The notes: generated by a model from the sequence alone, not told the origin. DNA of 64,000 nt from Marsupella aquatica (GCA_973895155.1 OZ316896.1:10365525-10429524); one strand, 5' to 3'. Shown: positions 1,380-28,183, counted from the first letter of the stretch. A program made the numbers and translations.

Positions 1380-1910
1380 TTTGTTGAGACATCACGTTGT
1401 CATCTTGCACCGGACCACATCAAGTGCCGAGAGTGGAATCAGGATTACACAGATAGGCTAAAGAATTCACTCCTCTCTCATTCGGCTATAAAGTTCGAGA
1501 AGCAATGTTGCTTTTTAGTCCCTGTGAAGTGGGTTCAGTCGGAGGCCGACAGAGATCCCGACTACAATGGGACGCCCTACGATTCATCGCCAAAGGAGGA
1601 GGACATTATGACCAGTCATTTCTGGATACTCGGAGGCCAGCACACAATAATGGCGTACAAATTGCTGAGAGAGGACGACAAAGTCAGCCAAGTTGTACGA
1701 GACGCTTGCGGTATTGTAGAAGCTGTAATGTTTTGGGCAACGCTCAACAACGACAATAATGTTCATTTGATGGGATTATCGAAAGCTCTGAACCACTGTC
1801 ATCAAACATCAATGGAAGAAGGATAGTTTCTCACCATTGTACGACAGTGTCGTAATATCTGGAACTCATTTGGGCGGCCTGGATCACATTATCGTCATCC
1901 AAATTGGAAG
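1380..1910 (+). other. ParB/sulfiredoxin-like domain in the cluster A gene
   Basis: IKCREWNQDYTDRLKNSL...FLVPV...HFWILGGQHTIMAY...LSKALN aligns with IRPVDRLHVENIK...FVLCV...YRIIGGNHAARA...LGFQDN in element B. The following VRQCRNIW matches VRACHNIF. Confidence 0.55.
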
Positions 1911-4830: not shown

Positions 4831-5845
4831 TCCTTTTAGTGACAGAGGAAAATAGGGCCAAGGCGGAGAGTGAGGCGGCTGAGAGGCTTCTGGCCGAGAG
4901 GATGGCGGACGAGACCGCAAGACCGGAGAGGGTGGAGGCGGAGACGTTGGAGGCAGAAAAGGTGGATTCCGCAAGACTGGAGAGAGAAGAAGCCGCAAGA
5001 CTGGAGGCAGCGAGGAAGGAGGCCGAGAGGGCCAAGGATCTTTCGCTTATTCCTGAGGCACAACGTCTACCGAAAATAAGGCTGAATTTGAAGAAGCCTT
5101 CTTCACCCTCAGTTGCAGTTAAGAAGAAAATATTAGACTATTTTCTTCGCTCGGAGTTTGAATTTAACGATCCACCCTTAAGTACGGTCTCGTTGGATGA
5201 TTGGAATAAATATTCACCGGAGCAGCTCCGAGTCCAGGCAGTCCTTGCTTTGCAATATTGGAAGGGTCTTTTGATTACCGAGGAGAAGACTGCCACTGCA
5301 TCCAGAATGGAGACAATCATCAATAATGTGCGCTTTTCCGAGAATCGAGTGCAAGACCTGGGAACGTTTTTGGCACCAGACTCGGCTCAAGTCGTTAAGA
5401 GACTAACAGCTGACTTGACGCGACCGGGTTCGTGGTCTCGACCCCGATATATTGTAGAGGTGACTCGCGCAAAAATTGTGGCACCGAATATTTTGGAATC
5501 GGATTCCCAGATTGTGGAATATTTGAATCAAATGCCACAACCATTTGAAGGTCTTCCCGCCTCATCGCTCCAACCTTCGCAAACTCGTCCGGTGGAGCGA
5601 TCATGACGGTCTCGAGGAGGGCTGAAGGATGTTGTTGCGATTGAGGCACCCAAGAGATCAGCTGCGAAAAGGCCGGATCCACCCAATCCAAAGGTCATTC
5701 GCAAGCTATAAGCTTAAAGTTTCTATTATAGACGTCATTATTTTATTATTGATCTGTTATTGTTTCTGTTTTCTGAGGCTACAACCCTTAGGCTACAACC
5801 TCAGTACGTTATTTGAAGGCATTCTGAAATCTCTGTTTTTTGCAG

Positions 5846-6634
5846 TTTTTTGAAAATTTGGCTAGTCGAATAGATCAATGCCTTGATCCTTCTAAGGATA
5901 TGGAAGAGCTATTGACCAAGTTCTTACAACACTCGATCAAGAGGAAACATATGATGTGTCTGAGACCGCGCGAGTTGCTCACCGATGATATAATTAACGC
6001 TTATTTGAGTTTTCTCGAACTGATTCTCGATAGAGTTGGAAAGTCAGACCTTGTCAAATTCTTCCAAACACACCATTTTGAGCTTCTCTCCATGGATCCT
6101 ACCATTTTCAACGAGGAGAGAGCAGCTTGGACAAGGGAGTTTCCGCTAAAAATCAGTGAATACGAGAAACTGGTCTTTCCAGTACACAATGCTGTGAAAG
6201 AACATTGGTCATTGGTAGTCTTGTATCCGAAGGAGAAACGGCTGGAGTACCTAGATTCTCTAGTTCATAATCGACAAAATCTTGGGGTGCTAGATATTGT
6301 TGGGAAGTACTACGCCGACGAAATTGCCTAGAGAATTGGTGTCAACTTGGATCTCTCAGGTTGGGAACGGATATATCGGAATGATATTCCTCACCAGAGT
6401 GACTGCCACAGTTGTGGTGTGTTTATCTTGAGATACGCCAAGTGCTTGTGTCAAGGAAACGGAATTAATTTTGCCGCGGATCAAATTGAGAAATTCCGTA
6501 GGGAGATAGTCTTGTCGTTATTTGACATGGACTTCCGCAAGCCAACGTCCGTAAGTAACCTAGTTACCGGGATCCGTGCTGCTATGATTGACATTTCCGG
6601 TGGAATTCCAGCACTGAATGACCGTCTTGTACAG
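5846..6634 (+). pseudogene. Ulp1/SENP-family (peptidase C48) SUMO-protease exon
   Basis: LTDDIINAYL, FFQTHHF, FPVH..EHWSLVV, YLDSL, PHQSDCHSCGVF. The His-Asp-Cys triad and oxyanion Gln are present. One in-frame TAG at 6329. Confidence 0.85.
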
Positions 6635-6720
6635 GTAATACACTTCATTTCAATGTCTCTCTTTGTAGTCACGCGACCGTTCGCGTTATAAACTTATTTT
6701 CATTTCTTAATGTTTTACAG

Positions 6721-7626
6721 AAGCCTATCCTGAAACCCCCTGATCGAGTATCGAAGGCACCAGTCCGGAAGTCCGGTGATCGTCCAGAGGCGGGAAACAA
6801 ACAGACCGTTCTAGTACGTTCTCCAAACCCTGCGGCACAAAAATCACAGGTACAGATGGCGCCTAATCCATCGGCAAAGAAGTCACCGGTTCAGAAGAGA
6901 CTTGTAATTTTCGATCTGAATCGGGTACTTATCTGGTCAGAGAAGATCAGCCCTGGGATGCCCATTCGGTCAAGGGGTGTGAGACAGATGCACAAGGTTA
7001 TCTATCCAAGGCCTAATTTAATGGAATTTCTTGAGAAGGTGGCAGATCTATACGACATTGCGATCTGGTCGTGCATGTTCAAACGGAATATTCTATCTTG
7101 TGTAAGGCTGATACTTCGACCCGAAGTTTTGAAACGTATTAAATTTATATGGGGACAAGAATCAACTCGACTTATTGGGAAGAATAATAATGACATCCCT
7201 TTATTTGTCAAATGTCTCTCGGACATTGCCGTCGATATTAAAGATTACAACATCGAGAATGTCATTCTTATCGATGACGCTGCATATAAGACGAGCCTTA
7301 ATGACTTCTATTCATCGCTGTATCCCGATGCATATTCTGGGCTCGATGATGACCTATTTTTTAGAAAGAAACTATATCCATATCTATGCGACATGTCAAT
7401 TGACAAGTTGACATTCTGCGAGCTCCTTAGTGGATATGGGATTCCAACGTTCTCTCAAGAAAATCTTGAGAAAGATTATATTGATAAGACGAATCTTTGG
7501 AGGAGAAACGTGATCATTCGTAATCAGGGGAATAAAGACCATTTAGAAAAGTTTGACGAATTTATGAAATACTTATCTGCCAAAAAAGACCGTGCTATAG
7601 AAGCCCGGGATAAGTCCAATAAGTAA
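6721..7626 (+). CDS. NIF/FCP1-like HAD phosphatase domain, copy 1
   Basis: LVIFDLNRVL, RPNLMEFLE...YDIAIWS, FIWGQE, KCLS, NVILIDDAAYK, LYPYL. Confidence 0.8.
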   Translation, partial: KPILKPPDRVSKAPVRKSGDRPEAGNKQTVLVRSPNPAAQKSQVQMAPNPSAKKSPVQKRLVIFDLNRVLIWSEKISPGMPIRSRGVRQMHKVIYPRPNLMEFLEKVADLYDIAIWSCMFKRNILSCVRLILRPEVLKRIKFIWGQESTRLIGKNNNDIPLFVKCLSDIAVDIKDYNIENVILIDDAAYKTSLNDFYSSLYPDAYSGLDDDLFFRKKLYPYLCDMSIDKLTFCELLSGYGIPTFSQENLEKDYIDKTNLWRRNVIIRNQGNKDHLEKFDEFMKYLSAKKDRAIEARDKSNK

Positions 7627-7751
7627 ACGTTTATTGTTTATTATCAATTATTATTTATAAATTGATTGAAATTGAACTTTTGGGAGTGACGCGCCCGGTC
7701 GCGTGGTTGTTTGCAATTGCATAATATGAGAATCGAATTGTTCATTTACAG

Positions 7752-8458
7752 GTGTCTAAGTGGAGCAGGTCGCGTCAACTTCTAGTTTTAGGACTGGAAA
7801 ACTTCCTGTGCTCTGTTCAAAATATACTCCTCAGCTCAAGTCGGCACCCGGAATTCGTATCGGATCTCTATGTGTCGTTCCGAGGCCGCATCTTCATGAT
7901 CTTATAAAATTCTGTTATGATCATTTTGATGTGATGGTCTGGTCTATTCTCGACGATAAACTGGTTTATCAGATACTTTCAGAAGTGTTGTCGAGCACCG
8001 ACCTATCGCAGCTGATATATGTGTTCACGTGGGATCATTGCTAGAATCTTGGTTATGTGAAGAAAAATTATAAGACTGTTGTCTTCAAATCTATCGAGAG
8101 ACTACGTGATATGTTTCAAGATTATCGACCAGAGAATATAATCCAGATTGATGCCTGTCCTTCCCGTACATGCCAGACAGCTGTATGCGAATTATTGTTC
8201 GCTAAGTCGTTTCAAGGATTGTTGGATGATGTCTTTTTGAGGGATGACCTCATTCCATATTTACGAAAGCTATCAAATTCAGGGCTTTGTCTTGCGTTCG
8301 CTAACAAGTTTGATTATCCCATCTGGTCGATTAGAAATCTACATCGAGATTGGGATCTGAACGAGGATATATGGGAGCATCTGTACGTGCAGAGACATGC
8401 GGATCAAGTTCTTATCAAGCACTTCAACAGACGTCACTTATCAATGGCCAGAGTGTAG
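7752..8458 (+). pseudogene. NIF/FCP1-like domain, copy 2 (frameshift near 7815, stop at 8042)
   Basis: After the TTTACAG acceptor it reads QLLVLGLENFL, then RPHLHDLIKFCYDHFDVMVWS, NIIQID, DLIPYL. Confidence 0.7.
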
Positions 8459-8534
8459 AGGATGTTTTCTCTGTAATATGTGACGCGACCATTCGCGTGA
8501 CTACATCCATACGGGCTCTTGTGTTTCTCTACAG

Positions 8535-9263
8535 GAGATTCATTGCAGCAGAGAAAACGGGCTCATAGTTTTAGACGTTGAGCATCTACTCTGCTACACT
8601 GCACCGCATTTCCGACTGATGGCGGTCTCAACTGGAATTCGGATTGGGAATATACACATTTTTCCAAGGCCTCATCTTCACGAATTCTTGAGATTCTGTT
8701 TTGAGAATTTTGATGTAGGGATCTGGTCCTCTCTTGGGAAGAACCTTTTAGATCAGATTTTAGCATCTATTTTTACTGCGATGGAAATGGCCTTATTTAA
8801 GTATATTTGGGATCAGTCTCATTGTTACTTATGCGATGGGGTGACATCAAATAAGCGGATATTTTTGAAGTGTTTTGAGAAGGTTGGAATTTATACGAAG
8901 GCGTATTTGCAGCAAAATATAATGCTTATCGAATCCGATGCATTTCATGCTTGTTTAGATCCTGTTGTTGGATCATTATTTCCGCCCAAATATTTTGGGT
9001 CGGTCGACGACAGTTTCCTGATTAACTTGCTGATTCCGTATCTTAGCAAGCTAGCAAACTCTTGTGAGCCGCTTGTCATTGCCAATGGAAGAGATTATCC
9101 AGATTGGTCAGTTAAATCTATTTTTAGAGATTATGATTATAATCATACTCTATGGAAAGACCCTGTGATTCAGAGGCATGGAGATAGATATCTAGTAGAG
9201 CAATTTAATAGACGCCCAATTTTGGGCGCTTCCAAAATAATAGTCGGCATGAGATCAGATTAA
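8535..9263 (+). CDS. NIF/FCP1-like domain, copy 3
   Basis: After the CTACAG acceptor it reads LIVLDVEHLL, RPHLHEFLRFCFENFDVGIWSS, YIWDQSHC, NIMLIESD, LIPYL, and is open to TAA at 9263. Confidence 0.75.
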   Translation, partial: EIHCSRENGLIVLDVEHLLCYTAPHFRLMAVSTGIRIGNIHIFPRPHLHEFLRFCFENFDVGIWSSLGKNLLDQILASIFTAMEMALFKYIWDQSHCYLCDGVTSNKRIFLKCFEKVGIYTKAYLQQNIMLIESDAFHACLDPVVGSLFPPKYFGSVDDSFLINLLIPYLSKLANSCEPLVIANGRDYPDWSVKSIFRDYDYNHTLWKDPVIQRHGDRYLVEQFNRRPILGASKIIVGMRSD

Positions 9264-9552
9264 TTTGTCTTGTCGTTCTAGAAACCATTTGTAAACTCCT
9301 TATATACTGGTTATCATATATAAAGGATCTCAAAGATTTATTTCTCTATTATTATTATTCGCGTGAGCATGTCTCTTGGTCCCGTCAAGTTGGATTGGTT
9401 AAAATGTGACGTTGCAGTCATTTTCAGGGTTTCACGTGCAGCCACGCGTCATGTCGCCCCCTTTTTATTAAAATAATAATATTTAGTGATTTTCAGAATT
9501 TCCAAAGTTCGGTTTTCCTTAAATTGGGGTTAAGGGTGCAAATGAAAATCAG

Positions 9553-10961: not shown

Positions 10962-11258
10962 CTCGGGGGTCTCACTACATGGGGACCTCCCCATCACCTG
11001 CGACGTTTTTAGGCCTTGGACCCCCTAAAATGTAAGAAAAAAATATTATTTTTTAACCCCTATAAAGTTGGAATATTCTTGGAATATTCCAAAAATTGGA
11101 TTAAAAAGGCCCTAATATTCTTATAAGTCTCAAAATTGAATTTAAAAGACCCTATTGTTCTTCTACAAAAATTCTTAAGTCTTCCCTTACAACCAATAAA
11201 ATGACCCTATCCTTCGTCGCACGTGATATGCCATTTTTGTGGAAGTGAAACCCCCGAG
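10962..11258. mobile_element. MITE, family 1 copy a (297 bp)
   Basis: TIR CTCGGGGGTCTCACT / AGTGAAACCCCCGAG and 8-bp TSD GTCAAAAA (10954-10961, 11259-11266). Nearly identical to 22188-22483. Confidence 0.92.
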
Positions 11259-11266
11259 GTCAAAAA

Positions 11267-14200
11267 GACACCAATGAAGTGAAGAAATATAGTGCTGAGA
11301 ATGAAATGCGACCATGTGGTTTGCCCATAGGTGTGGAGCTGCCAAAATTAACCCAATTAGAGGAACAATGCATATCCCCAGTGCATGTTGTGATGCAATT
11401 GCGGAAAGTAAAAGGGTTACAATATGCTTATAGTTCGCATATTTTTAACTTATTGCAAGATCGATCCAAGTTTTTTAGTGTTTTGCCATTACTTCCAAGT
11501 GATTTTGATGTCATTCTTCTTAAACCTAGAGGCCGAGTTGGAGAAGAAAATTCAGTCCAGGTTGCACGACCCTCAAATCATGAGTTTAGGGTGCGTCGGG
11601 GTGCTATCATGGCTTGGTTGACATATCTTTCGGAGCATCATCCTTCCTTTAGACAAAATGTTGATGGGTGGATCACAATCTCCCAAGAAGCTTTAAACCT
11701 TCTATCAGAGGATGCATGTGTGGCTAATAGGTTACGCAACATTGAAGAGACTGAAGTGATCATTGATGGTATGGATGACAATGACAATGAAATATTAAAT
11801 GATTGTGCATTGCAGCCAGCTTTGCTTATAAGAGATTGCATGGTTCCCAATCTTGGTTCAAGAATCACGAAGGAAGATCGTACATGGAGAAGATTTCAAC
11901 AAGATCAACAAAATGGGCCCTTATCTATGCCTACATTGAGATCACAATGATTGAATGAGTTTGGGGATTCTCCATATATCATTGACGCTTTTCCTACATT
12001 ATTTCCAAATGGGAAGTGTGATCTAAAATCTCAACGGGCACATAATGTGAATGCACATGAGTATTTTAAACATCTCATATGATTACGAGATCCCCATTTT
12101 GCTCAACATCCTCGATTTTGATGGTTTGCTGCCAACTCCATATTTAGATGGCAAGCAAAAACTGATGGAGCATTCTATGCTAAGCGTCGTCATCAAAATG
12201 AAGTACAAATCATAGTGGAAGATTTGATGAGACAATTTGAAAGCAATGAAGGAGCTATGGCACGAGAAATAGTACATCATGGAAAGAATATTCGAGAAAC
12301 AAGACCGTTAGTATTGGTCAAATGTGCGATCTGATCTACTTGCAATGGTACAGGACCCGGAGGTGGGATGTCCACATATCTTTTTTACAGTTAGTGCTAC
12401 AGATCATCAATGGCCTGATCTACAACGTTTTATGCCCATACAATATGCAGAAGATGAGATAGAATCACGCAAAGTTCAAATTTACATAAAAAAAATTGGT
12501 GGAGAACCCTCACATAGTATCTTGGTATTTGAATAAAAGATTCAAGCTCTTTTTTGACTTTGTGATGAAGAAGAAATGGTTAACAATTGATTATTGGTAT
12601 CGATTTGAATGGCAAGGAAGAGGGAGTGGACACATTCATGGATTCCAATGGCTTTCAAGGGATCAAGCCATTCAAGATCCAAATACTCTTGATTTTTCAA
12701 AAGAAGAGGATGCAAAACAATTAATGGAGTACTGGAAAGATGACTTCTCTGCAGTAAATCCTGGCCCTAACTTGGAAGTAGCTTTCATCCATCCTTGTGC
12801 TCGAGAGCTTGATACACTAAAAGATACCAAGCGAGAACTAGCTGAAATGCTTAATAGAGTGCAACAACACAGAAGATGTTCTCCTAGGTATTGTCTACGG
12901 CAAACAAAAAAGTCACGTGAGCTTCATTGTAGATTCGAATTTCCAAAAGAATTGAGAAATGAAGCAACAATGGTTAAAACTGAGAGAAACAACTGGAAAT
13001 TTGAGCCTGTACGCAATCAACCTCTCTTAAATTCTTTCAATACATTGATGATATTGGGATGGCAAGCAAACATTGATTTTAAACCAGTGACAACTTTGCG
13101 GTCGGTTTTGATGTACATTTCAAAATATGAATCAACCTGAATATAAAACTGATTCATATGTTGATATTGTGCGTAGTGTATTCTCTAGCACGGCCCCTGA
13201 AGCACGAGGTAGAGATGGTGTGACACGAGTATTGAATCGAATGATAGGAGAAAGAGATTATTCGGCACAAGAAGTTTGTCATCACTTGCTTTTGATCAAC
13301 TTGTTCAACTCAAGTCGTGATGTGCAAACAATTGATATGAGATCTATTGATGAACAGCGTGTTCAAGTAAATATTGAAGGCCAAAATCAAGCAGGATTTG
13401 GTAGAACCCCATTGGAATATTACATGGAGAGGGCTTCCGTATTAGATGATGAGTCTTTTGCTAAAATTTGTCGTGATTTCACGAGAGTAACTCAACGGGA
13501 TAGAGAGAAGAAATGGCCTTACACTATCCGTACTAGAGCAAAAGCAGAGTGCTAAAAATCTATCCACAATATTCATGGGATCCACAATCTCCGTTGTATG
13601 CGGACTGGTGTCGTGCAAAAATGTTGTTGCATCATCCATTTCGAAGGATGGAAGACCTTTTAAGACATTCACATAGAGATGGTCGCATGGCTTGGATTGA
13701 AGCATTTGAGGAATGCAAGGCTCATCACAACCATCAAGTATTAGACTCCTTGGATGAATGTGCACATGCTGAAATGGAGACTACGGAAGAAGAGTTTGAA
13801 AGCGAAGACGTGTCGGATGATGAAAGTGAAAATATTCTATCCGAAGGAATGCTGCATGCTCAAGTGGGGATTCAAAATATAAATGGTATGGTTGGCTCCA
13901 ACGATGAAAATAACAATCTAGGAAAACGAGCTATTGATATCAACTATGATTGGGGAACCAATTCTTATGACTATCCTAATTTAGAACTCGGGGGGTTAAC
14001 TAAGTGTATATTTTGGGGTACCACGTGCGATCCTAGCCTAATATAAATAGGCCTATTTTATAAAGAAAATATTCTAAGAATATTCTCTATTTTCAATATT
14101 AATAACCTATTTTACTTTATAAAAAGTATACATTAGAGAATATTCCATAAACATGAGTTTATAATACCTTCTTTTGCCTCATACGCTTTTTAAAAATTTA

Positions 14201-14614
14201 GTTAATTTCTATCAAAAATACCTATTTTGGATCGCACGTGGGGCCTAAGATTTTTGATAGTCAACCCCCCAAGATTTAGAAGATGCTTTCACTTTTATCC
14301 AAGATCAATGCAAATTGGCTGGAGACTCTATAATTGTTGATGACATTGATCCCAACTTTGAGGTGTCTCTATTGACAGATGAGCAAAAAACATTTTATGA
14401 TTGCGTCATAAATCATTCTGTTACAAAATGCATTGTACCATTGCAACTCAATATTGACGGTGTTGGTGAAACCGGAAAGTCTTTTTTGATTGGAGCTATT
14501 TCGCACGGTATAGCTCAACATAAAGATCCGAGCTTGCCATCAGCATTGATCAGGATTGCACCCATTGGAGTTGTAGCTTATACCATAAAAGGACAAACAT
14601 ATCATTCAGCCTTA
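11267..14614 (+). pseudogene. Helitron Rep (HUH) and start of PIF1 helicase, fragmented
   Basis: FPTLFPNG, FFTVSATDHQWPDL, YWYRFEWQGRGSGHIHG (HUH), YISKY (Y2), ERDYSAQEVCH, HHPFR and Walker A GVGETGKS. Many stops and frameshifts. Confidence 0.9.
13987..14273. mobile_element. MITE, related family 2 (287 bp)
   Basis: TIR CTCGGGGGGTTAACTA / TAGTCAACCCCCCAAG and 8-bp TSD ATTTAGAA. Removal restores the frame YPNLE|DAFTFIQDQCKLAGD. Confidence 0.88.
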
Positions 14615-15531
14615 AACACAATTTCGGACCGACCGAGAAGTGTGTCGGAGTTCTCGTTTAGCCCGATCCCATTTTTTTTCTAAGGCAATGCAATGACCGA
14701 TAAAACTGGCAAAAACTCTCCGAAACGCCACTTTCCTCCATTGCATCGCCGCGGGAATGCAAGGAGCGATACGTGCATTGGGTTTTACATTCTGTCAGTG
14801 AAAAAGTCCGAACTGCGAGTAACTTGGTCCGAATTGTGTAATCCAAGAACGACCACGCACTAACCCAGGTAAAGGGAAAACTTAACCATGGTTAAGGGGA
14901 AATTAACCATGGTTTAGAGCGTCTCCTATATAAAGAGGAGCGGGCTGCCCCTGGGGCTGCCCATAAAACGTTTGCTTTTGCCAGAGCAATATCTCCTGAC
15001 TGAGAGCGAATACCAAACTCCCATCGAGTCTTACCCAAGCGATTTGACTCTTTCTACCGAAAACCCGATAAATTTATCGGAACAACCATTCCTGTTCAAG
15101 TTCTCCATGTAAGACTAACTAGTCATTTAGTGTAAAATGTCTAGATCCGAGTGGACTGCGATAAATTTATCGCATTCTGCATTCCTCTGTTGCAATCATT
15201 TGATCCAGTGTTTAGAGAGGTGTTGCCTTCATTCCGATAAATTTATCGGAGTCTTCATTCCTTTGATGGAAAGAGGAGTAATTGAGAATCCGATAAATTT
15301 ATCGGAGTTGTCATTTTTGTGAAAGATTGAATTCAGGGCTTAGGTGTCTGAGGAAGTCATATTTTCAATTCGAATGCGGAGTGCGATAAACTTATCGCAT
15401 CCTCCTGTGAGAATCATTTTCCTTTGTTTTATTTGGAGACTCATCTTCATCTCTGATGTCGCAGTGTTGCCGGATTTAGGAGGCACAACGGAAGGTCGAT
15501 TGCACTCCGTGCACAACAGGTATGGTGACAA

Positions 15532-15804
15532 ATGGCTGTCTTCCTTGAAAATCATGTCAAACGTGCACGCCGGTTGTACAAGAGACTCGTGCGACTCAAA
15601 GTTCTCCCCATCGGTATAGGAGCATTGTGGATGGGTGGTACTGATCCTGGAGATAGGCAGAATCCTCTCCGCATTGAATTTTACGGAATGAATGATGCAA
15701 GAGTTCCAATTTGTTCGAGGTTGATGTTAACGGCGTGTTTACATTCTTTGGAGTTTTCTTGTAACTATTGTTGTCGTCGTCTTGACAACAAGTACCACAA
15801 ATAG
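15532..15804 (+). CDS. Small ORF of unknown function in element B
   Basis: 90-aa ATG-started ORF on the cargo strand with no recognisable motif. Confidence 0.3.
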   Translation: MAVFLENHVKRARRLYKRLVRLKVLPIGIGALWMGGTDPGDRQNPLRIEFYGMNDARVPICSRLMLTACLHSLEFSCNYCCRRLDNKYHK

Positions 15805-16055
15805 GCTCACTTCTGTTGTAAGATTTGGAACGAAGACCCTTGGGTGAACCTTTCACGATGAGTGTTTCGACCTTTGCATTGAGGCGCGTCTTGTAAGGAC
15901 ATATTTAAATAAACAAGTCCTACCCTTGCGCAGCAAATATAATACGTCACGAGTCCTAATCGTTAAACTGTCGTGCAGAGTTGGTACTGTGGATGTGTTC
16001 GGTTACACCTAGTGATTGAAGGTATTTTTATTGGTGGTTTTGGTAGCTCTGTTTC

Positions 16056-16599
16056 ATGGTTACGTCGGAGAATCTAATCATTGCAAAGATGGGATCCGTT
16101 TTAGCCCACGAGCGTAGGAAATATATTCGAGGAAAAGTGCCCGGTGTGGAATGCGGAAGTTTGTTGAATGGACTTCCCGATCAACTCATTGAATCTCACA
16201 TTTGGCCCCTCCTAGCCTTGTCTTGCACACAAGATGAACACCTTGGCCTTGACCTAAAACTTCTACCAGAATAACGATTGACTCGAATGAGAACAATCAT
16301 TTGTCTTGGAGCCACCTCAAAGAAATGGAACTATCTTGTTGTTGGTACACAATTTTGGGCGCTATTGAAATATGCAGTCCGTGAGATCAATGACATAAAC
16401 AAAATGCTCGCAAACATTCCTAATGCCGACCTTCTCTCAAACATACATATTGCTAGGGTCTTCCGAGAGGAAACTCATTTCCTCTCTCCCATAGATAATT
16501 ATGCTTGGGTGCTTTTCGTATGAGCAGTTAGATCAGTTTCGTAGAGTTTGGATAAATCTTGGAGAAAGCGGGAAGCGGACAATTCTTGCATGGCATTGA
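16056..16599 (+). pseudogene. F-box-like gene, homolog of 66-596
   Basis: LLNGLPDQLIESHIWPL...TSKKWNYLV...FWA. After a frameshift, LGCFSYEQLDQFRRVW matches LGGFEGSELDTFRNLW in A. Stop at 16272. Confidence 0.7.
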
Positions 16600-16923
16600 C
16601 GAGTCTGAGTGGATGAGGCATTGCTGCAAACATCCAATAAATTTATCGCACTCCTCATTCCTCTAGTCGATTTTGGGTGCTCTAAGGTTTGCTCAAGAAG
16701 AGCTTGTAAAGAAACACTTTGAATGTAATTGACTCTGCCTCCCCTGACTTTGGGTTGTGTGGTCCAGAGTGTATTTGTTTGCGCCTCTTCGGACGATTAG
16801 CTGACAAGTGCATTGGCTTCACAGCCCATTATACAAGGTATTGTAAAGTTGGATGAAACTTGTAGAATTGTAATTAGTATGTTCTCCAAAATTTATTCCT
16901 GATTTCTATTCGGTGATCAGGCC

Positions 16924-17641
16924 ATGCTCGAGCGACGCATTTTTGTACCCTACTTGGATCCTCCAGAATGGGGGAATGGAGCCATGCTGGACCAGCTAAG
17001 GAGGCTGGATGAGTCACTAATTTTAAAGATATGCAGGCTGGTAGTAAAACCGTCTTACCATAACGCATTTCACTTCTACGTAGATCAGATAGGGGGAGAA
17101 ATTTATATTCGGTGGGATAGATATGTTGGATTTTCTAGAAGAGTTATCCTACTCTTTGTGAAAACCGGTGCAGTAAGACGTTTTATACTCCACTGCTGTC
17201 ATGTTGTGAAGGGCAATCCTGCTTATGATCCAGAATTCTATGCCGACAACAGACGTAGAGCATTCGATGAGATTCAGGATGTGATTGACGAGCTGGACAA
17301 TCCTCTTGCCACCGAGTTTTTTATTGACACTGGTGGGAAACTATATTCATACAAGATTCATCAACTCCCCCCCCAGCCGGTCTGTGCGCTCTTTAACTTG
17401 ATCTATGTAAGTTGCCTGTGGACGAACGTCCTTGCCAATGGTGAGATCTGTCCATGCTGCACAAATTAATGCTTGTTGTGATATTCCGTCATGCCGGTAT
17501 TCAGTAGCAGTAGTGAATCTTGAGACTGGTGAAGTTGATTTCCATTGGCTGTGGGCTTATGATCATCGCGTCACTCATATTCCCCAATGGCCCAAAAAGC
17601 GGATCGAACGCTTCGCTCTGGCAAGGTTCAACTATGATTAG
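16924..17641 (+). CDS. Unknown cargo protein (probably spliced or frameshifted)
   Basis: 181-aa ORF plus a following 69-aa ORF with protein-like composition; no family recognised. Confidence 0.4.
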
Positions 17642-20570
17642 GATTTAGGTTTAGGGGTTAAGGTTTTGGATTTAGGGTTCCGTAGCTGATTCTTTGACCT
17701 GTACACTCGGCCGTCAATTTAAAGAAGGCTCACTTTTGCGATAATTTTATCGGTCATTTGCATTGCGGGTCTCTTTGTCCTTGTGTGATGAGATGTCGTG
17801 TCCACATGTGTTGTGAGATTGGCGGCGATAATTTTATCGCTCTTTGCATTGGAATTTTTTTATTTGCAGACTTTGCCATGGCTGCTAGTGGAAAGAGTGG
17901 ATCTGCTGAGGCAGAAAGTCTCATGACAAGCCTCACCAATGCAATTTGGACGAGTGAAGACATTTGTGAAGAGGTCAAGTGTATCAAGAAGTCATGGTAC
18001 TTCCGTGACGCCAGATTACAGTCCACGGGTTTCAAAGATTGTGCTACCCCAATCCTTTGGGTCCAGTTGAAAAAATTGGTGAAGGTTAATGTTTCGTATG
18101 GCCCTGTCATTGCTGTTGCCGTCGTCGAGTTCATGGTTGGCCACGGGGAGGGAAAAGTGTTGACAGAGGGCCTTAGTTTCTTGACAATGTGTGGGCGCAA
18201 GGGTTTCACATCTCTCATTGTTACTCTCGATAACTTTGATGAGAAATCGATGGACAGTTATCCAGAAGATCCCCTTGTTGCCGAAGTTTGGGCAGCAAGA
18301 GAGATGAATGTTATGGGTTCGGCTTGGATCGGCCAGTATGTGCAAGATTGTGATGCCATCATGCTTCCAAGGATGAACGCAGAGTACAAGAGACTTGTGG
18401 GTGAAGAGTTCAAACCTGTCCGCAAAATTGTTTTCAAGAAACCAGGTTCAAGTGGCAGCGGTGGTTCTAATGCCGATAAAATATCGGGGCGGAAAGAACC
18501 ATTGCAATCCTCTACACATATTGACGTGGACGAACCTACAACTTCTGGTCAGGTTTTGGGAAGTGGAAGAGGGAAAGGGAGAGGTAGCGGCAAGGGAGAT
18601 GCCGCGGGAACCTCTGACGGTGGGAAGAAGAGCTAGGAAACTGGCGGTAGTGGGAGAGGCCGGGGCAACCGTCGAGGACCATCCGTTAAACCAAGCGAAA
18701 GTAAAGGATCCGAGGGATCCAGGCCATCTGGTTCTGGACTTAGCCCAAAGAGGAAGAGGACTGGCTGGACTGAGACGGTGGCTGCAGAAGTAGATAGAGC
18801 TCCGTCAATTCCATCAGTTCCAGTCGCGGTTCCTGCGGCGCCATTGGTAAGTACTACGTCGTTGTACTGTTTAACAAATACGAAATCCGATAAAAATCTC
18901 GCTGTTTATTTCCTGAATTGCGGATTGTGGAGTTATGTTGAACAAATGCAAACTCCGATAAAAATCTCGTAGTTTCTTTCCTTAATTGAATTTGCAACGC
19001 TTTTGTAGGCTGATTAGGAGGAGGAGACGGCTCTTTCGATGTATGAGACGGACGCGATCAAGGCAGAGCTCAGTCTTCTGATGCAACGAAGGGTGCAAAG
19101 GACAACTGTGCTTCTACATGTCGACAATCTCATATTTGATGAGGAGGGGGATTTGTCAACTTTGATTAGACCAGTGGATAGATTGCATGTGGAAAATATC
19201 AAGATACTTCTCATGAAAAACCCCACCAACTTCAGTGCCCCGTTCGTGCTGTGTGTGGATCCGAAGGATTGTCCCACAACCGCAGATTGGGACATCCTGA
19301 AGTCAAGGGTATGGAAGTATAGAATTATTGGAGGGAATCATGCTGCTCGGGCAAAGTCCGAGTTGTTTAAAATGTACGAGAAGCAAATATATGGTGAGCC
19401 AGAAGCTTGGGTTTACGCTGGGCTTACGAGATCCGAGGTCCGAAAGTTAGGCTTCCAGGATAACTATGACCAAGAGTATCGGAAGAACATGACTAAAATT
19501 GACCCAAGTTCGCGCTTGTCACAATATTTTCCTTGAAATGGGTGTGGGCTCGACTGAAGATGTCCACGAAGCATGTTGTCAAGAATGCATGATGGAGTAC
19601 ACGCCAGGAGTTCGTGACTCCATGGCCAAACATGATCCGGCTTTCCAAATTGCTTTCCGAACAGGTGAAATTTGGGATCTTCAGGAGCAGATTTTCCAGA
19701 TGTGGGAGAAAGGTATTGTCTTAGGATAACCCAAAAAAATTGTGGCAACGACGAACGCAAAGGGAAAGGTAAAACCTTTGACGGTAAGGGAGATTAAAAT
19801 GAATAAACTTGCTGATGACCTCAACTTAAATTCATTTCGAGGTCTCCAAGACTGTCAAATAAGAAGCATGTCAAGCGTCTCTTGAATAGGGTTATCGGGA
19901 AGGTGATCACTTTGGATCAAATGCACAAGGAAGGTGAGAAGTTGAAAAATCTTGCCAAGGTGAAGAAACTATTTTTGCAGTCTGGTCAGCCAGATTGGGC
20001 AACATGCAGAGAAATGTTTCCCAACGAAACAGATGTCTTGGTCCTTGGCATATGGGCGGAGAAATTGAGTGACGCGGTAAGCATTCCTCTCACAACATGC
20101 TCTATCGTGAGATTTTTATCGGCTTTAGCATTCCTTTGTTGGTTTCTAAGCGATTGCATCTATCAGCTAGCGCGCTCCATCACGAGATTTTTATCGGCTT
20201 TAGCATTCATTTGTTGGTTTCTAAGCGATTGCATCTATCAGCTAGCGTGCTCCATCGCAAGATTTTTATCGGCTTTAGCATTCATCTCACACTATTCTAA
20301 CTGTAGATGTGTCTGACATTTTTACAGCTGAAGATTAATTCAAAAAGGAAAAGCAAAGTGGTTCCGATTGTCACTTATAATTCTGCGGGGGAGGTTATTG
20401 TTCCCTCAGCTGAAATCCCTTATGTGTTTAAGAATTTTGTGCTTGTTGCAATCGATAAGTACAATCGGCTGAGGCCCTTAGGCGAGGGCACAGCAGAAGC
20501 GTTTGAACAAACATGGAAAAATGCAGACGGGGATTCTTTTCCCTACTATCTCCCTGGGTCCTCAGCGTTA

Positions 20571-21778
20571 CTAATACAAGGAGGACGTGTGAACAACGCA
20601 AGGGTATTTTTAATGTAATGCAAACTAATTTTTATAATAATTTTTAAAGTAGGCAACATCCATGTATATACATTTGGCACAATATTAGTAATAAGGGTTT
20701 TATCAAATTCATGCCACATTTATCTTATGCAAGGGTACCCAAAATGCCAAAGGACACGCGTCGCTATATGGTTGGCACACATGTCATCATTTTATTGGCA
20801 CACATGTCCATATAGTAAATCAGACATTTAATTATTTGTCGTCTTAAGGCAAGTTTGGTTTCGTGGGCCCCCTTATGGTGGGACAAATGAGTTTGGGTAG
20901 ACATGTTTAGGAATTAAGTCGGGAGTTGAGTACATGTTGGGTCAGGATCCTTGGGCCCAACTTGGCTGGGGTTTTGGGATTGATGGAGACCCATGGATCA
21001 ATCCCACATAGACGGACAAGATTACTTTTGAATTCATTTGAATCAAATGGCCAGGTATGAGGCCACCGATGAAGCCAGATGTGTTTGTGTGTGGAGGGGT
21101 GTACTCCCTTGATCATAGGGGTGGGGGGAGGTACCGGGTGCACAAACAATATTTGTTACAGTTCTCAGTAGTAATGTTTTTGGTATTATCAGTACTTTGT
21201 GTCTAGAATATATGATTAATGTGTGGTTTGATGTGTCAGGTTGAAAGAAGCTGCCAAAACTCTACTTATCATAATTTGGTGTTTATGGTTAATGTCATAT
21301 CATTCTTAGTCAAGATGGAATAATTTAGCAATTAGAGTTTACATAAGTAGTATATATGCAATTTTTTCTCCAGGGACATAGCATAGCATAATATTTCCTT
21401 TGTACTAGTTTAGTTTATCTCTATGAGGTCTACAAGTTACCAAAGTTATAGTCCCATATTGTAGGAATAACCATACTTCTCTAGTACTAATTTTGTTTAT
21501 GATCTATATAAAATATGTATTGGTATGAACATCAGACGTAACAACAGGTCCCCTATGCAAAATAAAATCTTATATGTTTCATTATGATATTTACAATTTT
21601 AAAAATTCAAGGGTGTTTTTAATTCCTTCAAAAACTCTGTTATAATTTACAAAAGGATAAAATTTAATAGGAAAAGTTAATATTTTTACATTAACAAGAG
21701 ATTTTCTTTTGTGAACAAAAATATTAAGAAGGGGTACACAGGGGGTGTCTGTTCTCAGGAGGGTTCACTTAATATAGT
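20571..21778 (-). mobile_element. Putative non-autonomous Helitron-like insertion in the MTase gene
   Basis: AT-rich 1.2 kb. The minus strand starts ACTATATT and ends with a decayed hairpin (CCCTTGCGTTGTTCACACG), about 11 nt, then TTAG. No TSD. Removal restores SSAL|KSEGPGYYLHVGD. Confidence 0.55.
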
Positions 21779-22187
21779 AAGAGTGAGGGCCCAGGGTACT
21801 ATCTCCATGTTGGTGATGTTCGAATTTTGGATTCTTTTGTTCAGCCAAGGGCTTACACCCTTGCGGTTGCGGATATTCCATATGGTTTTAATGCTCCTGG
21901 TTCGGAGTTTGATGAAGTGGCCTTCATAGAAAAGGACATTTTAGACATGTTGACAAGTTTCTCAAAGATGACGACCGCTAAGCAGTGGAGGTTTGTTGTG
22001 ATCCATTCACTACAACAAACGCATATGGTGATGTCTGCACTGGAGAGTGTATGCAACTGTGGGGTCGAGGCTGGAATCTGGGAGAAGACTAACATTCATG
22101 AGCGTCCCGCTGGAGCTCGATTGGCGTGGGGTTTTGAGAACTGGTCGATAGGTTTCTATAGCGAGGAAGGCATTCAGAACATGGACA

Positions 22188-22483
22188 CTCGGGGGTCTCA
22201 CTATATGGGGACCTCCCCATCGCCTGCGACGTTTTTAGGCCTCGGACCCCCTAAAATGTAAGAAATATTTTATTTTTTTAACCCCTATAAAGTTGGAATA
22301 TTCGTGAAATATTCTAAAAATTGGATTAAAAAGACCCTAATGTTCTTATAAGTCTCAAAATTGAATTTAAAAGATCCTATTGTTCTTCTACAAAAATTCT
22401 TAAGTCTTCCCTTAGAACCAATAAAATGACCCTGTCCTTCGTCGCACGTGATATGCCATTTTTGTGGAAGTGAAACCCCCGAG
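22188..22483. mobile_element. MITE, family 1 copy b (296 bp)
   Basis: Same TIRs as 10962-11258; 8-bp TSD CATGGACA. Removal restores the MTase frame IQNMDMYNFQPDE. Confidence 0.93.
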
Positions 22484-23375
22484 CATGGACATGTACAATT
22501 TCCAACCGGATGAGTCTCGCGTCAATATCATCAAGGTTCCATGTGTAACCAAGAAGTCCGTTGATCCATTGGGATTTGTTGTGAACCCGTATCAGAAGCC
22601 TGTTGGTTTGGGGGCTTGGTTTGTTTCCCATTTCTCTGAGAAAGAGGATTGGGTTATTGATCTTTGTTGTGGAACCGGATCGACATTACCTGCTACTCTC
22701 CTCAATTCTCGCCAGGGTTGTGCTGTTGATAAGAGTTCTGCGCAGATTGATTTTGTGAAATCCCGGATCATGATTCTGGAGTCAAATTGGAATTTATATG
22801 AAGAATCCCAGATTGAAGGGCACGGCGTTGAAGGTCATGAGATTCAACCACCAATTGCAGGCCAATTGGGTGTTCTCGGGACATCGACTTACGTAGTTGA
22901 GGTCGTGAAGGAGACCGAAGAGGAACAAGAAGAAACTGAGGAAGAGCCTCCCAGAACACCAAATGAAGATGATCTCAACGACATGTTATTAGATTAGTTG
23001 CGTGTGCTCGTTAGGATAATGTCAATCACCAATGGAGTTGTCGATAAATTTATCGGATTCTATATTCCATGAGGAAGAATCTTTGTCACCTTTATTAATG
23101 CGATAAATTTATCGGACTTTGCATATATCGGATTGTCGCGGTGTTCTAGTTGGGGGAATGGAGTTGTCGATAATCTTATCGGACTTAGCATTGTATGCTC
23201 TAACTGGTTTGTCATTGCAATTATTTAAAAAAAAAGATATCATTATAGCTGCGGAGTACATAGTCCCAGAACGATAACCACTGTACATATTCATGGGAAC
23301 GATAACCATTATAACTTAAACCTGCAACTAGCTTCGACTATCAACGACTACAGTCTCCATTGCATTTTGAATGAT

Positions 23376-26300
23376 TTATCTTGTTTGTATAGGGAGAGTA
23401 CTATTTGCCAATAACGCAAAGTTATAGGCATAAACGGCAGTTTCTGCTAGGGACAATTCATCCTCCAGTACTTTGCTAAACGAAGCCTCTTTCTCCGGAT
23501 AATATCTGCTTTCAATTGCAGACTCTTCCTCCGAATCCATTGCATACCAAGTGATTTTAATCCGCTCCGGGATGTCGTTAATTCTTGTGAGAATCTCAGT
23601 CACTTTTGCCATCCAGAATGGTCTTCCCTTGGGATCCTGATGGGCTGCTACACATATCATTGCAAATTTAGTATTCACCTCTAGATCCTTGAAGTCTCCA
23701 ATTTCCGTGACTTTTCTTCAAATTTCGAAATACATGACTCCTCACACTCGCTACTTTATCAACCAAGCTAGGTTCCATTGCTGCTTCCGTAGGAATACTC
23801 GGAAGTTCTCTCTGTACGTTTACCTTGGGCCAACTCCAATCAAAACTCCATTGTGCAGGTTTCAGGTGGTGCTGAATCACTTCTTTTTGTTTGTCAAAAA
23901 AACGACCCCACCATAGACGATCTTCGTCGTCAAAGTAATTGAATCCATCTTCAATTGCTCTTCGATATTTTTGAAGAGTTGACAAATAACTTTGAGCCGC
24001 CCGCTCATCTTGTTCCTCAGCATCATTCTCTTGCTCTTCATTGTCTCCTATCGCTCCTGTGGCCGACTTCAATGCCATTTGTGGTGCGACCCACATTCCA
24101 GATGATGGAATGTACCGAACAAAATCCACCGTCTCCCCCCAATCGGTTGTCGTTGAAAGATGTTTGGCATGGAATACGGACCGAGCACTTCCATCTTCGA
24201 GTACTCTAGTAATCCGAAATTGTTTTTGAGCACTTATGTCGTGGAGAGTACGTAGAACCTGACCATCCATATCCTTGTCATTTGCTTGATCCTTGTCTGA
24301 CACAAATTTCTTAAAATTGACAACCTCGTCGATGAAAAATATCTTTGCCGTAGGATTGTAGGATTCCTCTATGATTGCTGAAAGAGTGTCCAATCGGAAA
24401 GCTTTCCGCTTGTTCAATTTTGAAGAAAACTTGCTAAACATTTGATCAATTTGATCATGGGTGTGCCTCACCAATAGGAAACCAACCTTTATTTTCTGGA
24501 AAACACCTATCTCCACCAACATATTCAAATATGCCATAAGATATTTATTCTTGTTTTCCCGAGCTGTGTTATCAAGCTGGAGGTAAAGCACTGGAGGGAG
24601 CAGACCTTCCCAGGTATTCAGAATATGCTGGATAACGTGGATGGTCAGGTTGCTATCATTGTGAATATTTGGATAGTTCAAAAAAACATTTGAACTTAAT
24701 TGTTTGTTGAAGATCAAACAACCCACTACGTGTACGGGGATGAAATACTTTTCATCCATATTCTTTGGACACCGAATAAAATGAGGTAACTCTGTCTTCT
24801 TTTGATCCATTCCATCAATATAGATGCCTAAATATTTCTCCGGACTCTTGTAACATTTGCTCCGGTGCTTTGCTAACTTCTCCCTCTCGACGGCTTGTGC
24901 CTTCCGATGCTCGTTTAGCAATGTTGAGAATTTTCCTACAATAATAAAAATGTTTAGGACAAAACATGATAACCGCAATGTTGGACCCTGACAGCGATAA
25001 ATTTATCGGGTTCAGTATTCAAACACGAGACCGTAATGAAAAACCGTGACAGCGATAAATTTATCAGGTTCAGTATTCAAACTGTTCAAACGATATATTC
25101 ACTCACATGGCCAAAGAAGAAGCACATGAATACTCAACCCGATAAAATTATCGGGAGTAACACACAGGTTTAGAAACTTACTCTTTTCTGCTTCGAGTGT
25201 TGCCTTGTCACGGAGTGCTTTGAATTCAGTACACGGGGCGCAGGTGGAGAAACGGCTCCTTTTGGGGATGCGCACGCGAGGAAACTCCTTGTTCCAAATG
25301 CGAAGAAACCACGAATATGTCATGCCTTGTTCTTGGTGCATTAGAGTTTCAGACTGGAAGGCATCAAAAACTTCTGTTTTTGTCCAATTGTCAGGTAAAT
25401 GAAAGATATCCTTGTTGGGGAGACTCTCGATATTTGTGGAAAAAAATCATCTAGCCATTGGATGAGACCAAGATGTGCGGGTGATTTTTCTCGACAAACT
25501 GTACCGATCTGTATCTGAGAAAACATGTTTTGCGAGATTTTTTGGAGACGATTATTTCCTAGTGAAAATAATTTCTTAAAACCACTCCGACAAAAGGATC
25601 TACCGCTAACTGAGTAACCACTTGCACCAGCATGCCCACCCTTCACACATCCTCTTAGAAGGATGTTCTTCTCTGGGTAGGATAGCCCATAGTAATAAGT
25701 GCGTTGTTTCGTCACGGCTAGCAGACCCAAATTCCTCAGACAGTAATTATCACAACACGAATACTTATGAATTTCTCTCATTTTGTTTCTATTCAATTTG
25801 TCATTTATCACATTGTCTTTCCTAGTAATTCGGTCCCTACTAGGCTCATTTGACTTCTCTACAGCCTGAAATCCGTTCATAACATTGGCATTTTTGGGTC
25901 CTTCAGGTGCCTCGCGAATAGATGCATCACTCTCTGCTGAGCTACCATCCTCTACAAATCTCCTTGACACATTTAGAGGGGCACTGAATAGACGACTATA
26001 ACTATTCTCTTCGACAACTCCTTCTAAACATTCAGACACAACTTGTGCTATTATATCGGATTCTCTATCTCCTTCCTCATCTTTGTCCTCCGATGCACTC
26101 GACTCATCTGAAAACACAATTGGACTCCGTGGCTCTCTATACTTAACCCGAACGCCACTAAGACCTCTCCTCGATACTTGGAGCCTGGAACCAATGACAG
26201 TCTGCCCTTGAGAACTTGGAGATTCTGGATTTGCATGTGCAGTCCCAACGACTCCGCGAGCTGCTGGAAAATTGGGCACTTGTTCACCACGATTCCCACA

Positions 26301-26906
26301 GACCATTCGAGAAAGGGCTGAGTCTAGACTTCGCAGTCCAATTCCCTCGCTTGCTCGCACATCCAGTCCAGGCAATGCAAAGACCGATCGTCGTATTGGT
26401 CTTTGTATTTCTGTGTCCCGATCCTCACCCGGAGACTGAAAGATCGGTCGTTGAACTTGTGTTGAATGTGGCGACTTGAATGCCGACTGCGATACGTGTA
26501 TCGGTCGCCGGATACCCTCTCCATAACACGGGATGGATGGACTGAAGCGACATCTCGGACCTAAACCTGGGATTGAAAGTTTCTCATTTCTTGGCGATGG
26601 AACGCTCAAGAGACGACGCTTCTCAGGTTTACTAGGCGACACATAGTAAGCACTGGGCTCAGGACCAGAACTTGCATCAGAATCTGAGTCAGAGATTTCG
26701 GGCACTATTTGCTGTGAGAGAGGTAGAGCTTTAAGTATGCGACTTGGAAAACAGCGAGCAACAAGATTAGGAGAGGATTCAACTGAACTGGAAGGAGAGG
26801 ATTCAACTGAACTGGAAGGTGAATCTGTGTCTGATTGAGACATGGCTATCCGAGACACTATGGGGCTTTGCATTCCTCCCGCAATCAGGGAAAATGAAAG
26901 GCTCAA
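23376..26906 (-). pseudogene. Sola-like DDD transposase with long Ser-rich N-terminus
   Basis: CCDNYC...FCRSGFKKLF, RFSTCAPC, IYIDGMDQ, LYLQLDNTARENKN, FLLVRHTHDQIDQMFS. In-phase intron at 24936-25181; frameshifts near 25430 and 23675. Confidence 0.8.
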
Positions 26907-27130
26907 CGGACAGAATGTTGCTCCAAGAACACAACTCCCAAAACTCTACTCTCGATAATGACGCCAAAAACTTATCGGCGGTGGCCCTTTTATAGTGTCT
27001 GTTGAGGGGTTGGCCCACGTGTCCACTTTTGATTGGCTGTCACCCTAAACGACAAAATAGCAGAAAAGGGTATATTTCTTGGATTTCCAATTTCATTCTC
27101 ACACGTGCATCGTAGCAAAATTATATAGTT

Positions 27131-27335
27131 TTGAAATTGAAGCGATAAATTTATCTGATGTTGGTATTGCAAAAGTGGTTCCTTCATATGGAAGTTGCAA
27201 TTTGAAATTGAAGCGATAAATTTATCTGATGTTGGTATTGCAAAAGTGGTTCCTTCATATGGAAGTTGCAATTTTGAAATTGAAGCGATAAATTTATCTG
27301 ATGTTGGTATTGCGAAGAGTTTTCTTCATATGGAT
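27131..27335. repeat. About 71-bp tandem repeat x3, each unit holding the B palindrome
   Basis: TTGAAATTGAAGCGATAAATTTATCTGATGTTGGTATTGC... is repeated three times upstream of the transposase. Confidence 0.9.
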
Positions 27336-27967
27336 AGGAATTTTAAAATTTAACCGATGAACCGAAGGATCTTAGTATTGTCGACTAGTATTTTTGTTGC
27401 CCGTAGTTTTCGCGATAATTTTATCGGACTGCGCATTGCTGTTGAAAGAATGGCATGTTGACTATGGTCACTTGCGGAGGTAACTGGTCAATTGCGGAGG
27501 TAACTGCAAGGTAAGTTTGACGAACCGTGCAGTAATTCTTATCGACTGTGATGTAAAATATTTTTGGTAAATATCCAAAAACTGAGAAAACTGAGATTGG
27601 GTCGGAGCTTTCATGGCTCAAATCCGGAGTCCGATACAGTTATCGCACTTGGCTCGAAACGTGGATATGGATTTATAGATAAGACCTTTCAGATATCTTT
27701 GGAGAGCGTGAATATGAGGTTGAGGAGAAAGTTTTTCGGATCTAATTGTTCCTTGATAATATGAATGTTTGTTAGCATGAATTTCATTGGTTTTGATCAT
27801 TATTAAATTTGCTGTTTCAATCCGAACTCCGATACGAATTACATTATTTCCCCAAAAACGTGTTTTTGATGAAAAAAACTGCCGATTTCGCGAGATTCGG
27901 CGGAAAATGAAAATAAACTTCTCGTTTAGAGGAAATAGTTCTTGTTCGGTCCGAAATCGTGTTCTTA

Positions 27968-28183
27968 TCGATAAGACCAATGCAAAAATTTGAGGCTTTA
28001 AAAGGAGCTACACTCTTATGATTGCAAAAATGCTGGAAGTACATACAATATTTGATTATCGATGAAAAATCCATGATAGGATTAAAATCACTTGCAAAAA
28101 TAGACTCGCGCTTGCGACAAGCATTTCCCAGCTCCTCAGATAAATGTTTTGGTGGGATTTTGATCCAAAAGTGGTCCAAATAA
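27968..28183 (+). pseudogene. Continuation of the Helitron PIF1 helicase (Walker B region)
   Basis: In frame with YHSAL at 14614: SIRPMQKFEALKGATLL*LQKCWKYIQYLIIDEKSMIGLKSLAKIDSRLRQAFP...FGG. Confidence 0.88.

Follow-up and report, generated by a model that had tools for sequence, protein, structure and literature searches.

Genes that join a ParB-like domain to a DNA amino-methyltransferase have recently been proposed as a kind of accessory gene of DNA transposons. One belongs to Sola1-1_Ec32, a 21.5-kb element of the brown alga Ectocarpus, in which the gene for a protein of 1104 residues (ParB plus a methylase of the N4-methylcytosine (4mC)/N6-methyladenine (6mA) type) lies opposite the transposase; in the passage that describes it, self-binding and self-modification were proposed for this protein, and the element has AACCG..CGGTT termini, a 4-bp target duplication ending in A and, as best match, the transposase of the moss element Sola1-1_PPa (PMC12477816). 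In the red alga Bostrychia, Plavaka transposons carry the accessory genes PAG2/PAG3, which provide a PF01555 methylase and a ParB-like domain, and arrays of inverted repeats lie beside the ParB-like gene (bioRxiv 10.1101/2025.02.11.637652). Here, we describe a 64,000-nucleotide stretch of the genome of Marsupella aquatica (GCA_973895155.1 OZ316896.1:10365525-10429524, hereafter the window) that contains a Sola1-like transposon whose ParB-methyltransferase gene (17878..22997) is a decayed member of this kind, a design already known, as a prediction. The transposon also repeats, mostly in its non-coding DNA, a three-part site, CGA-N8-TCG-N8-ATT, to which the intact protein could be addressed.

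The limits of the element follow from an empty site: in four of four sequencing runs, contigs run from 14610 directly into 27964, and the four letters at the joint fit either side. It has the terminal inverted repeats and the 4-bp target duplication of Sola1 transposons, and the ParB-methyltransferase gene and a DUF7869 transposase converge on opposite strands, in agreement with the original prediction, made by a model from the same stretch alone, that a transposon had retained the gene. The only target site seen, CTTA, is not the AWWT of insect Sola1 elements, and fits the final-A bias of Ectocarpus. In run X1, reads covered the element 15 to more than 100 times as deeply as the right flank, which hints at many copies. 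The nearest analogue is the accessory protein of Sola1-1_Ec32, as far as its description goes: both are giant Sola-type elements with AAC..GTT termini and a 4-bp duplication with a final A, in which a single protein of similar size (about 1,050 residues here), opposite the transposase, combines a ParB-like domain with an amino-methyltransferase, and the role proposed is the same. The algal element differs from that of the land plant in its length (13.3 kb here) and in its repeat, of 282 bp against 24 bp; the passage on it names no binding site, and the likeness to the window gene is one of description. The Plavaka system is further away, since in its published account two separate genes, which accompany a Plavaka transposase, encode the ParB-like domain joined to a 2-oxoglutarate (2OG) oxygenase and the methylase joined to a SET domain (bioRxiv 10.1101/2025.02.11.637652).

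The gene is on the plus strand, from an ATG at 17878 to a stop at 22995-22997, and consists of three exons (323 + 357 + 370 residues). Its two phase-0 GT-AG introns are probably spliced: the donor of intron 2 occupies an identical codon position in the five related loci that reach this intron (5/5), its acceptor is kept in the four loci in which it could be read (4/4), and the acceptor of intron 1 in three of three. Both insertions that split exon 3 are flanked by 8-bp duplications, and contigs that bridge 20543 to 21797 without the first one were found in three of the four runs, and contigs that bridge 22179 to 22484 without the second in all four. The two introns and two insertions had been proposed in the original prediction, together with an order of parts (N-terminal domain, Gly/Ser linker, ParB-like domain, helical region, DIPY before DLCCGTGS and acidic tail) that agrees with the coordinates and motifs found here, the folds being taken from models of homologues. 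It mentioned neither the stops and frameshifts nor the element ends, and neither the transposase nor the repeated site. After excision of both introns and both insertions the frame stays closed, and because of its three stops and two frameshifts (see the table) the window copy is a pseudogene; in four of four runs, other copies differ from it at 19503, 19849 and 19980.

The N-terminal domain shares about 30% identity with two relatives, and Pfam and Atlas searches assigned it to no family. The piece encoded by exon 2 has ten relatives among 312 candidates (54-83% identity); a Pfam search with this piece and with its homologue P0001, and an NCBIfam search with P0001, matched zero families. In a fold search, the model of the closest exon-2 relative (mean predicted local distance difference test, pLDDT, 59) matched PadC, Noc, ParB, KorB and sulfiredoxin, the first 19 ranks being ParB/sulfiredoxin (Srx)-type chains. 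A second comparison gave a best Z of 8.9 (root-mean-square deviation, rmsd, 4.9 over 166 aligned residues), with ParB/Srx-type chains in its first 34 rows followed by unrelated rows at Z <3; SerK, SbnI and Atu1540, which we take to be members of the ParB/Srx superfamily, are counted among the matches. The model thus predicts a ParB/Srx fold for this domain, and the ParB-type alignments reach residue ~309 at an rmsd of 5-10, through the low-confidence residues 190-267. A GxxR box arginine is the canonical motif of ParB CTPase clamps such as Spo0J, Noc and KorB. As had been pointed out for the window gene, this arginine is absent, and so it is in the 13 of 13 family proteins listed, whose box reads GGNH followed by G or A, which makes it more likely that the domain is a dimerisation and DNA-docking module rather than a CTP-hydrolysing clamp. 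The nearest language-model clusters of P0001 belong to fungal DUF3723, an accessory protein of Starship elements (0.94-0.95, with 160-168 shared features, a lead only), and DUF3723 might likewise be a ParB-like module. Like the window gene, DUF3723 is described as conserved cargo of giant elements, although these are of the tyrosine-recombinase type (bioRxiv 10.1101/2021.12.13.472469), and P0001 has no Pfam match to it.

The motif-IV piece of exon 3 has 15 relatives among 154 candidates (59-74% identity), and PF01555 is found in all of them. P0011, the closest exon-3 relative, scores above the curated cut-off of this family (30.5 vs 26.7 bits), and the window's own fragment below it (22.5 bits). 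The model of P0011 (pLDDT 62) has CcrM as its best match (E 5e-12), and TTHA0409, N4CMT, BceJIV, RsrI and PvuII also match, pointing to a permuted Rossmann fold; a sequence search of solved structures gave nothing better than E 0.02. Motif IV precedes motif I, which is the beta permutation. Close homologues keep D[IV]PY (15/15), NPYQKP (15/15) and DLC[CS]GTG (14/15), and in the wider family DxPY is found in 38 of 48 rows, with Asp at the first position of motif IV in 47 and Ser in the remaining one. According to the sections that treat them, Ser at this position is the hallmark of N4-cytosine enzymes and DPPY that of bacterial enzymes acting on adenine (PMC4738411, PMC8885841). The original prediction held that the target base could not be determined from the motif; it is right that the motif is not proof, but the Asp shared by 47/48 rows leans to adenine, and the base is probably 6mA, if the enzyme is active. 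That prediction had taken the 4mC enzymes of bdelloid rotifers and Marchantia as a frame. N4CMT (PMC8885841), a top fold match of P0011, and MpDN4MT1 (bioRxiv 10.1101/2021.02.12.428880) are, like the window gene, prokaryotic-type beta-class PF01555 amino-methyltransferases in eukaryotes; they are, however, host genes with SPPY/TSPPY motifs that make 4mC, N4CMT carries a chromodomain, and their descriptions mention no ParB fusion, so this frame gives way to the nearer Sola1-1_Ec32 protein.

A metagenome scan of 56 stretches yielded seven related loci (L001-L007), all from one sample. All three exons are present in two of them, and three more combine the methyltransferase exon with a partial or complete ParB exon; all three exon frames are open in L002, and those of L001 and L004 are broken. 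A convergent transposase accompanies the gene in four of the seven, with no match on the three remaining contigs, which are short. Non-synonymous diversity was lower than synonymous diversity (pN < pS) in 42/42 pairwise comparisons, and the closest pair gave ratios of non-synonymous to synonymous substitution rates (dN/dS) of 0.08 and 0.06; judged by these comparisons, the relatives are under purifying selection. When 1.84 billion proteins were searched with a profile, 1,193 hits had an E of 0.001 or lower. The organism was looked up for 20 of the 150 hits listed, and eight of these 20 are named homologues, from Chara braunii (4), Ginkgo, Riccia sorocarpa, Adiantum nelumboides and Cymbomonas, Ginkgo having at least six paralogues. 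The ParB-helical and methyltransferase parts are fused in a single chain in P0046, P0055, P0061, P0088 and P0172. P0046 (Chara braunii GBG86584.1) has two ParB-helical-methyltransferase units in one predicted chain, which may be a fused gene model, and L007 contains at 488-1438 a divergent (39%), frameshifted methyltransferase locus with a low CpG value (0.54) and a single dyad.

The repeated site came from an unbiased scan in which 960 spaced trimer dyads were compared, observed against expected. CGA-N8-TCG is the top dyad in the element (20 vs 2.14), in L001 (12 vs 0.91) and in L002 (22 vs 1.63), and is within the top five in L003, L004 and L005; the flanks of the element in the window have 5 vs 1.9 and 5 vs 3.4. 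Of 76 sites, 70 fall in non-coding DNA (12.3 kb) and six in coding DNA (23.0 kb), the exon limits in the related loci having been set by hand for this count. The spacer is specific to each subfamily (TAAATTTA in the window element, GACNNGTC in five loci and TCCAAACA in L002), and the outer letters are constant across the three, with CG at both dyad ends. Exactly nine bases out, ATT is found on at least one arm in 16/18, 28/31 and 19/20 strict sites, against a background of 2-3%, so that CGA, TCG and ATT follow each other at an 11-bp period, approximately one helical turn. Among the one-mismatch copies in the window, four of eight are C-to-T or G-to-A changes at CG, as expected of a methylated dead copy. 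The fixed ATT/AAT arm, nine bases beyond the dyad, would be a natural candidate for the adenine that is methylated.

Two alternatives concern what is recognised and what is written. The repeats could act in RNA, as hairpins or splicing signals, with an enzyme that methylates RNA: many sites lie in introns near acceptors, eukaryotic amino-methyltransferases are described as having often moved to RNA (PMC4738411), and METTL3 is among the fold matches of P0011. We consider this highly improbable, because sites occur in both orientations and also beyond the limits of genes, and the L002 spacer lacks self-complementarity, which argues for recognition of duplex DNA over an RNA hairpin; besides, METTL3 (E about 1e-6) ranks far below the DNA methyltransferases and an Rfam search matched zero families. 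It is also conceivable, albeit distinctly unlikely, that the enzyme modifies its own element with 4mC instead, for instance at the closing CG pairs of the dyad, in competition with the 5-methylcytosine (5mC) of the host. Such CG pairs are found in the three subfamilies and in a second element, the N6_N4 domain is reported to have repeatedly switched base (PMC8885841), and N4CMT and PvuII belong to the fold matches, but the near absence of Ser from motif IV and the conserved, adenine-bearing arm at its fixed distance speak for 6mA.

In the mechanism that we propose, the ParB-helical part of the intact protein would dock, as a predicted dimer, on CGA-N8-TCG dyads in non-coding DNA, the methyltransferase part would methylate nearby DNA, likely at an adenine, and the methyl mark would label the element as self, likely countering silencing by the host by analogy with VANC of VANDAL elements. 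That the intact protein docks on these composite sites, writes 6mA on its own element and counters silencing is plausible, although we hold it tentatively, with slightly more doubt than belief. The anti-silencing role is suggested because the sites, in promoters, introns and gene ends, are placed in the same way as the VANC motifs of Arabidopsis VANDAL elements, which are also short and family-specific, lie in intron, intergenic and terminal non-coding DNA and are multiplied by tandem repeats (PMC5735166); the window element has such arrays of a family-specific motif in its non-coding DNA. VANDAL elements are, in contrast, Mutator-like, with 8-9-bp motifs and an effect shown experimentally, and no ParB or methyltransferase is named in the text on them, so the comparison is limited to how the systems would work. 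A second, distant ParB-like gene of the window, with its own 14-bp dyad, was counted in favour of the proposed mechanism.

Several observations weigh against it. L001-L007 come from one metagenome and are hence not independent; the dyad is missing from the top five of L007, and L006 has only three sites and does not rank it there either; tandem duplication of some copies within the element inflates the counts; Z values of 7-9 are middling for a ParB fold when taken alone, and residues 190-267 of the exon-2 model have pLDDT <50, so that no helix-turn-helix is shown. Moreover, a transposase accompanies the sites in every locus that is long enough, and it may be the binder, as, in the account given, Spm TnpA and the AtMu1 transposase each bind to motif clusters of the element that encodes them and activate that element (bioRxiv 10.64898/2026.08.24.746577). 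The dyads would then bind the transposase or another cargo protein, and the ParB-methyltransferase would be active as a methylase, either at other places or independently of the dyads. The dyad at 14634, at the internal boundary of the left terminal repeat, would fit such an arrangement, which we judge rather unlikely: the sites extend through introns and gene ends across the middle of the element, and not only at termini, to which the action of TnpA is limited according to the same source; the right terminal repeat has none; and red algae have dyad arrays by ParB-like genes with a transposase of a different superfamily (bioRxiv 10.1101/2025.02.11.637652).

The last point against the proposed mechanism is that the family may persist without catalysis, since DxPY is lost in 10/48 rows and the methyltransferase-like half of the second window gene, which keeps its ParB-like half and a dyad, has no significant match. 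A protein of this sort could bind the sites without methyl transfer and, like VANC, which acts through motif binding in introns and intergenic DNA (PMC5735166), shield CG pairs or recruit host demethylation, the methyltransferase fold serving as a scaffold that binds DNA or S-adenosylmethionine (SAM). This seems unlikely to us, given that close homologues keep motif IV, NPYQKP and, with one exception, motif I despite saturated synonymous sites, and that a DLPY is also present in 3/10 of the phage methyltransferases aligned.

An old horizontal acquisition had been supposed, and a phylogeny with prokaryotic methyltransferases suggested as a check. The tree (39 rows chosen by similarity, midpoint root and small outgroup; a phage protein without the PF01555 motifs and near-duplicate or long-branch rows, 11 and then 20, were left out) separates 28 family rows from 11 phage and bacterial rows with a split support of 99/95, and places the close family together with the proteins from Riccia and Ginkgo (95/91), those of Chara and Cymbomonas being outside. 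This grouping, like the telomere-like TTTAGGG repeats in the element, points to a seed-free land plant as host. An ancient prokaryotic source fits this topology; neither the phage and bacterial matches nor the 39-row tree gave a donor lineage or a direction of transfer, and the best-ranked phage match is 22.7% identical. Phage ParB-methyltransferase fusions of ParB-terminase loci share the order of a ParB domain and then a beta-class methyltransferase (PMC4738411). In one example (L015), 209 columns of the methyltransferase part align with the family (probability 98.6, 24% identity), but the ParB parts are unaligned, the long N-terminal domain, the linker and the introns are missing, and the protein does not group with the family in the tree. 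In viral contigs, the close methyltransferase alignment matched 0/27 stretches and the transposase 0/92, and a deeper alignment found seven weak loci (23-38% identity); used as a protein query, the broad alignment returned the Ginkgo paralogues and one weak match, and nothing else.

Features of the window, with positions counted from its first letter and the strand where one is given
Feature	Position	Strand	Remarks
Sola1-like DNA transposon, whole	14615..27963		13,349 bp; ~11.8 kb without the two nested insertions
Left target duplication CTTA	14611..14614	+	in a Helitron's Pif1 helicase gene
Left terminal inverted repeat	14615..14638	+	starts AACAC; 21/24 letters match the right end
Five CGAT-N6-ATCG dyads	15066..15397		cluster in 5' non-coding DNA
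F-box-like open reading frame (ORF)	16089..16523	+	one stop at 16272; weak assignment (E 0.038, under cut-off)
Cargo ORF, 180 residues	16927..17469	+	no family
Short cargo ORF	17468..17640	+	no family
Two dyads	17739..17839		immediately 5' of the ParB-methyltransferase start
Exon 1	17878..18846	+	N-terminal domain, then Gly/Ser/basic linker; stop at 18634
Putative intron 1	18847..19008	+	GT-AG, phase 0; dyads at 18888 and 18956
Exon 2	19009..20076	+	predicted ParB/sulfiredoxin-fold domain (RPVD; GGNHAARA 19330-19353), helical region
Lesions of exon 2	19009..20076	+	stops at 19015 and 19727; frameshifts near 19503 and 19849
Putative intron 2	20077..20327	+	GT-AG, phase 0; one exact and two one-mismatch dyads within a 75-bp repeat
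Exon 3	20328..22997	+	beta-class amino-methyltransferase and acidic tail, split by two insertions
Motifs of exon 3	21872-21883; 22659-22682	+	DIPY; DLCCGTGS; also NPYQKP
Nested non-autonomous element in exon 3	20552..21796		CCCTGGG..CCCAGGG ends; 8-bp duplication
Nested high-copy miniature inverted-repeat transposable element in exon 3	22188..22483		8-bp duplication; second copy near 10963-11258
Three dyads	23042..23181		between the convergent gene ends
DUF7869 transposase	23376..26870	-	E 3.7e-48; in four frames, broken
Likely transposase intron	near 24936-25181	-	read by eye; holds three dyad copies
Two exact and three one-mismatch dyads	27143..27645		upstream of the transposase
Right terminal inverted repeat	27940..27963	-	ends GTGTT
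Right target duplication CTTA	27964..27967	+	Helitron helicase frame resumes
Second cargo array	39-9450		
F-box-like ORF	39-596		
Distant ParB-like ORF	648-1826		with GGQH
Possible degenerate methyltransferase-like region	1983-3883		
Long 15-bp coding tandem array	4141-4905		encodes an Ala/Glu/Lys/Gln-rich repeat
Ulp1 protease	5828-6331		
Two NIF/FCP1 phosphatase ORFs	6622-7626 and 8484-9263		
Decayed Helitron Rep/helicase	11249-14683 and 27968-28181		DUF6570, Helitron_like_N, PIF1; split by the transposon
Duplicated block	36826-40019 and 47539-50380		93-99% identity, ~10.4 kb apart; includes a basic helix-loop-helix (bHLH) ORF (48365-49006, minus)
Decayed copia-type long terminal repeat (LTR) element	54519-61003	-	long repeats 93% identical

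Within the element, degenerate plant telomere-like TTTAGGG repeats are found at 17636-17679, 5' of the ParB-methyltransferase gene. The end of the transposase gene (23376-23717, minus strand) encodes a conserved domain with PFWMAKV, which L006 has in frame and which shows 59-63% identity in three loci; it may be a chromatin-reader fold. The F-box-like ORF of the element resembles that of the second cargo array at E 5e-6. This array has a dyad of its own, ACGCG-N6-CGCGT, with six exact copies vs 0.04 expected, mostly just 5' of exon starts, which shares a CG-N10-CG span with the dyad of the main element. Its ParB-like gene (648-3883) could be tied to the family only loosely, with E 0.056 and 0.0054 for its ParB half and E 0.04 and 0.31 for its methyltransferase half.

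Beyond this element, a wider proposal can be framed, which we regard as doubtful: that transposons of the green lineage, as far as mosses, ferns and Ginkgo, each bring along a parS/ParB-like system of addressing that is fused to an adenine methylase, with a three-part site of 11-bp period, a spacer that would be a private code of each subfamily and a 6mA mark of self set against silencing. In a literature search, neither land-plant members nor the three-part site turned up in any paper; Iyer 2011, the Sola paper, Repbase (Sola1-1_PPa) and, except for one table row, the algal supplements were outside its coverage and may hold plant members. If the transposase were the binder, the finding would shrink to one more cargo gene. 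If the proposal is true, land plants would have a 6mA writer encoded by an element, in a group for which a review counts few adenine methylases (PMC4738411), and thereby a source of 6mA tied to transposons, as well as a second anti-silencing route beside VANC and a compact sequence-addressed methylase. The algal papers only predict self-binding and self-modification; in the present case, the likely target is known with single-base precision and exists in three natural versions, which makes binding, base and specificity testable by a swap. The value of the locus would lie in these conserved catalytic motifs in a plant lineage, together with a precisely defined candidate target.

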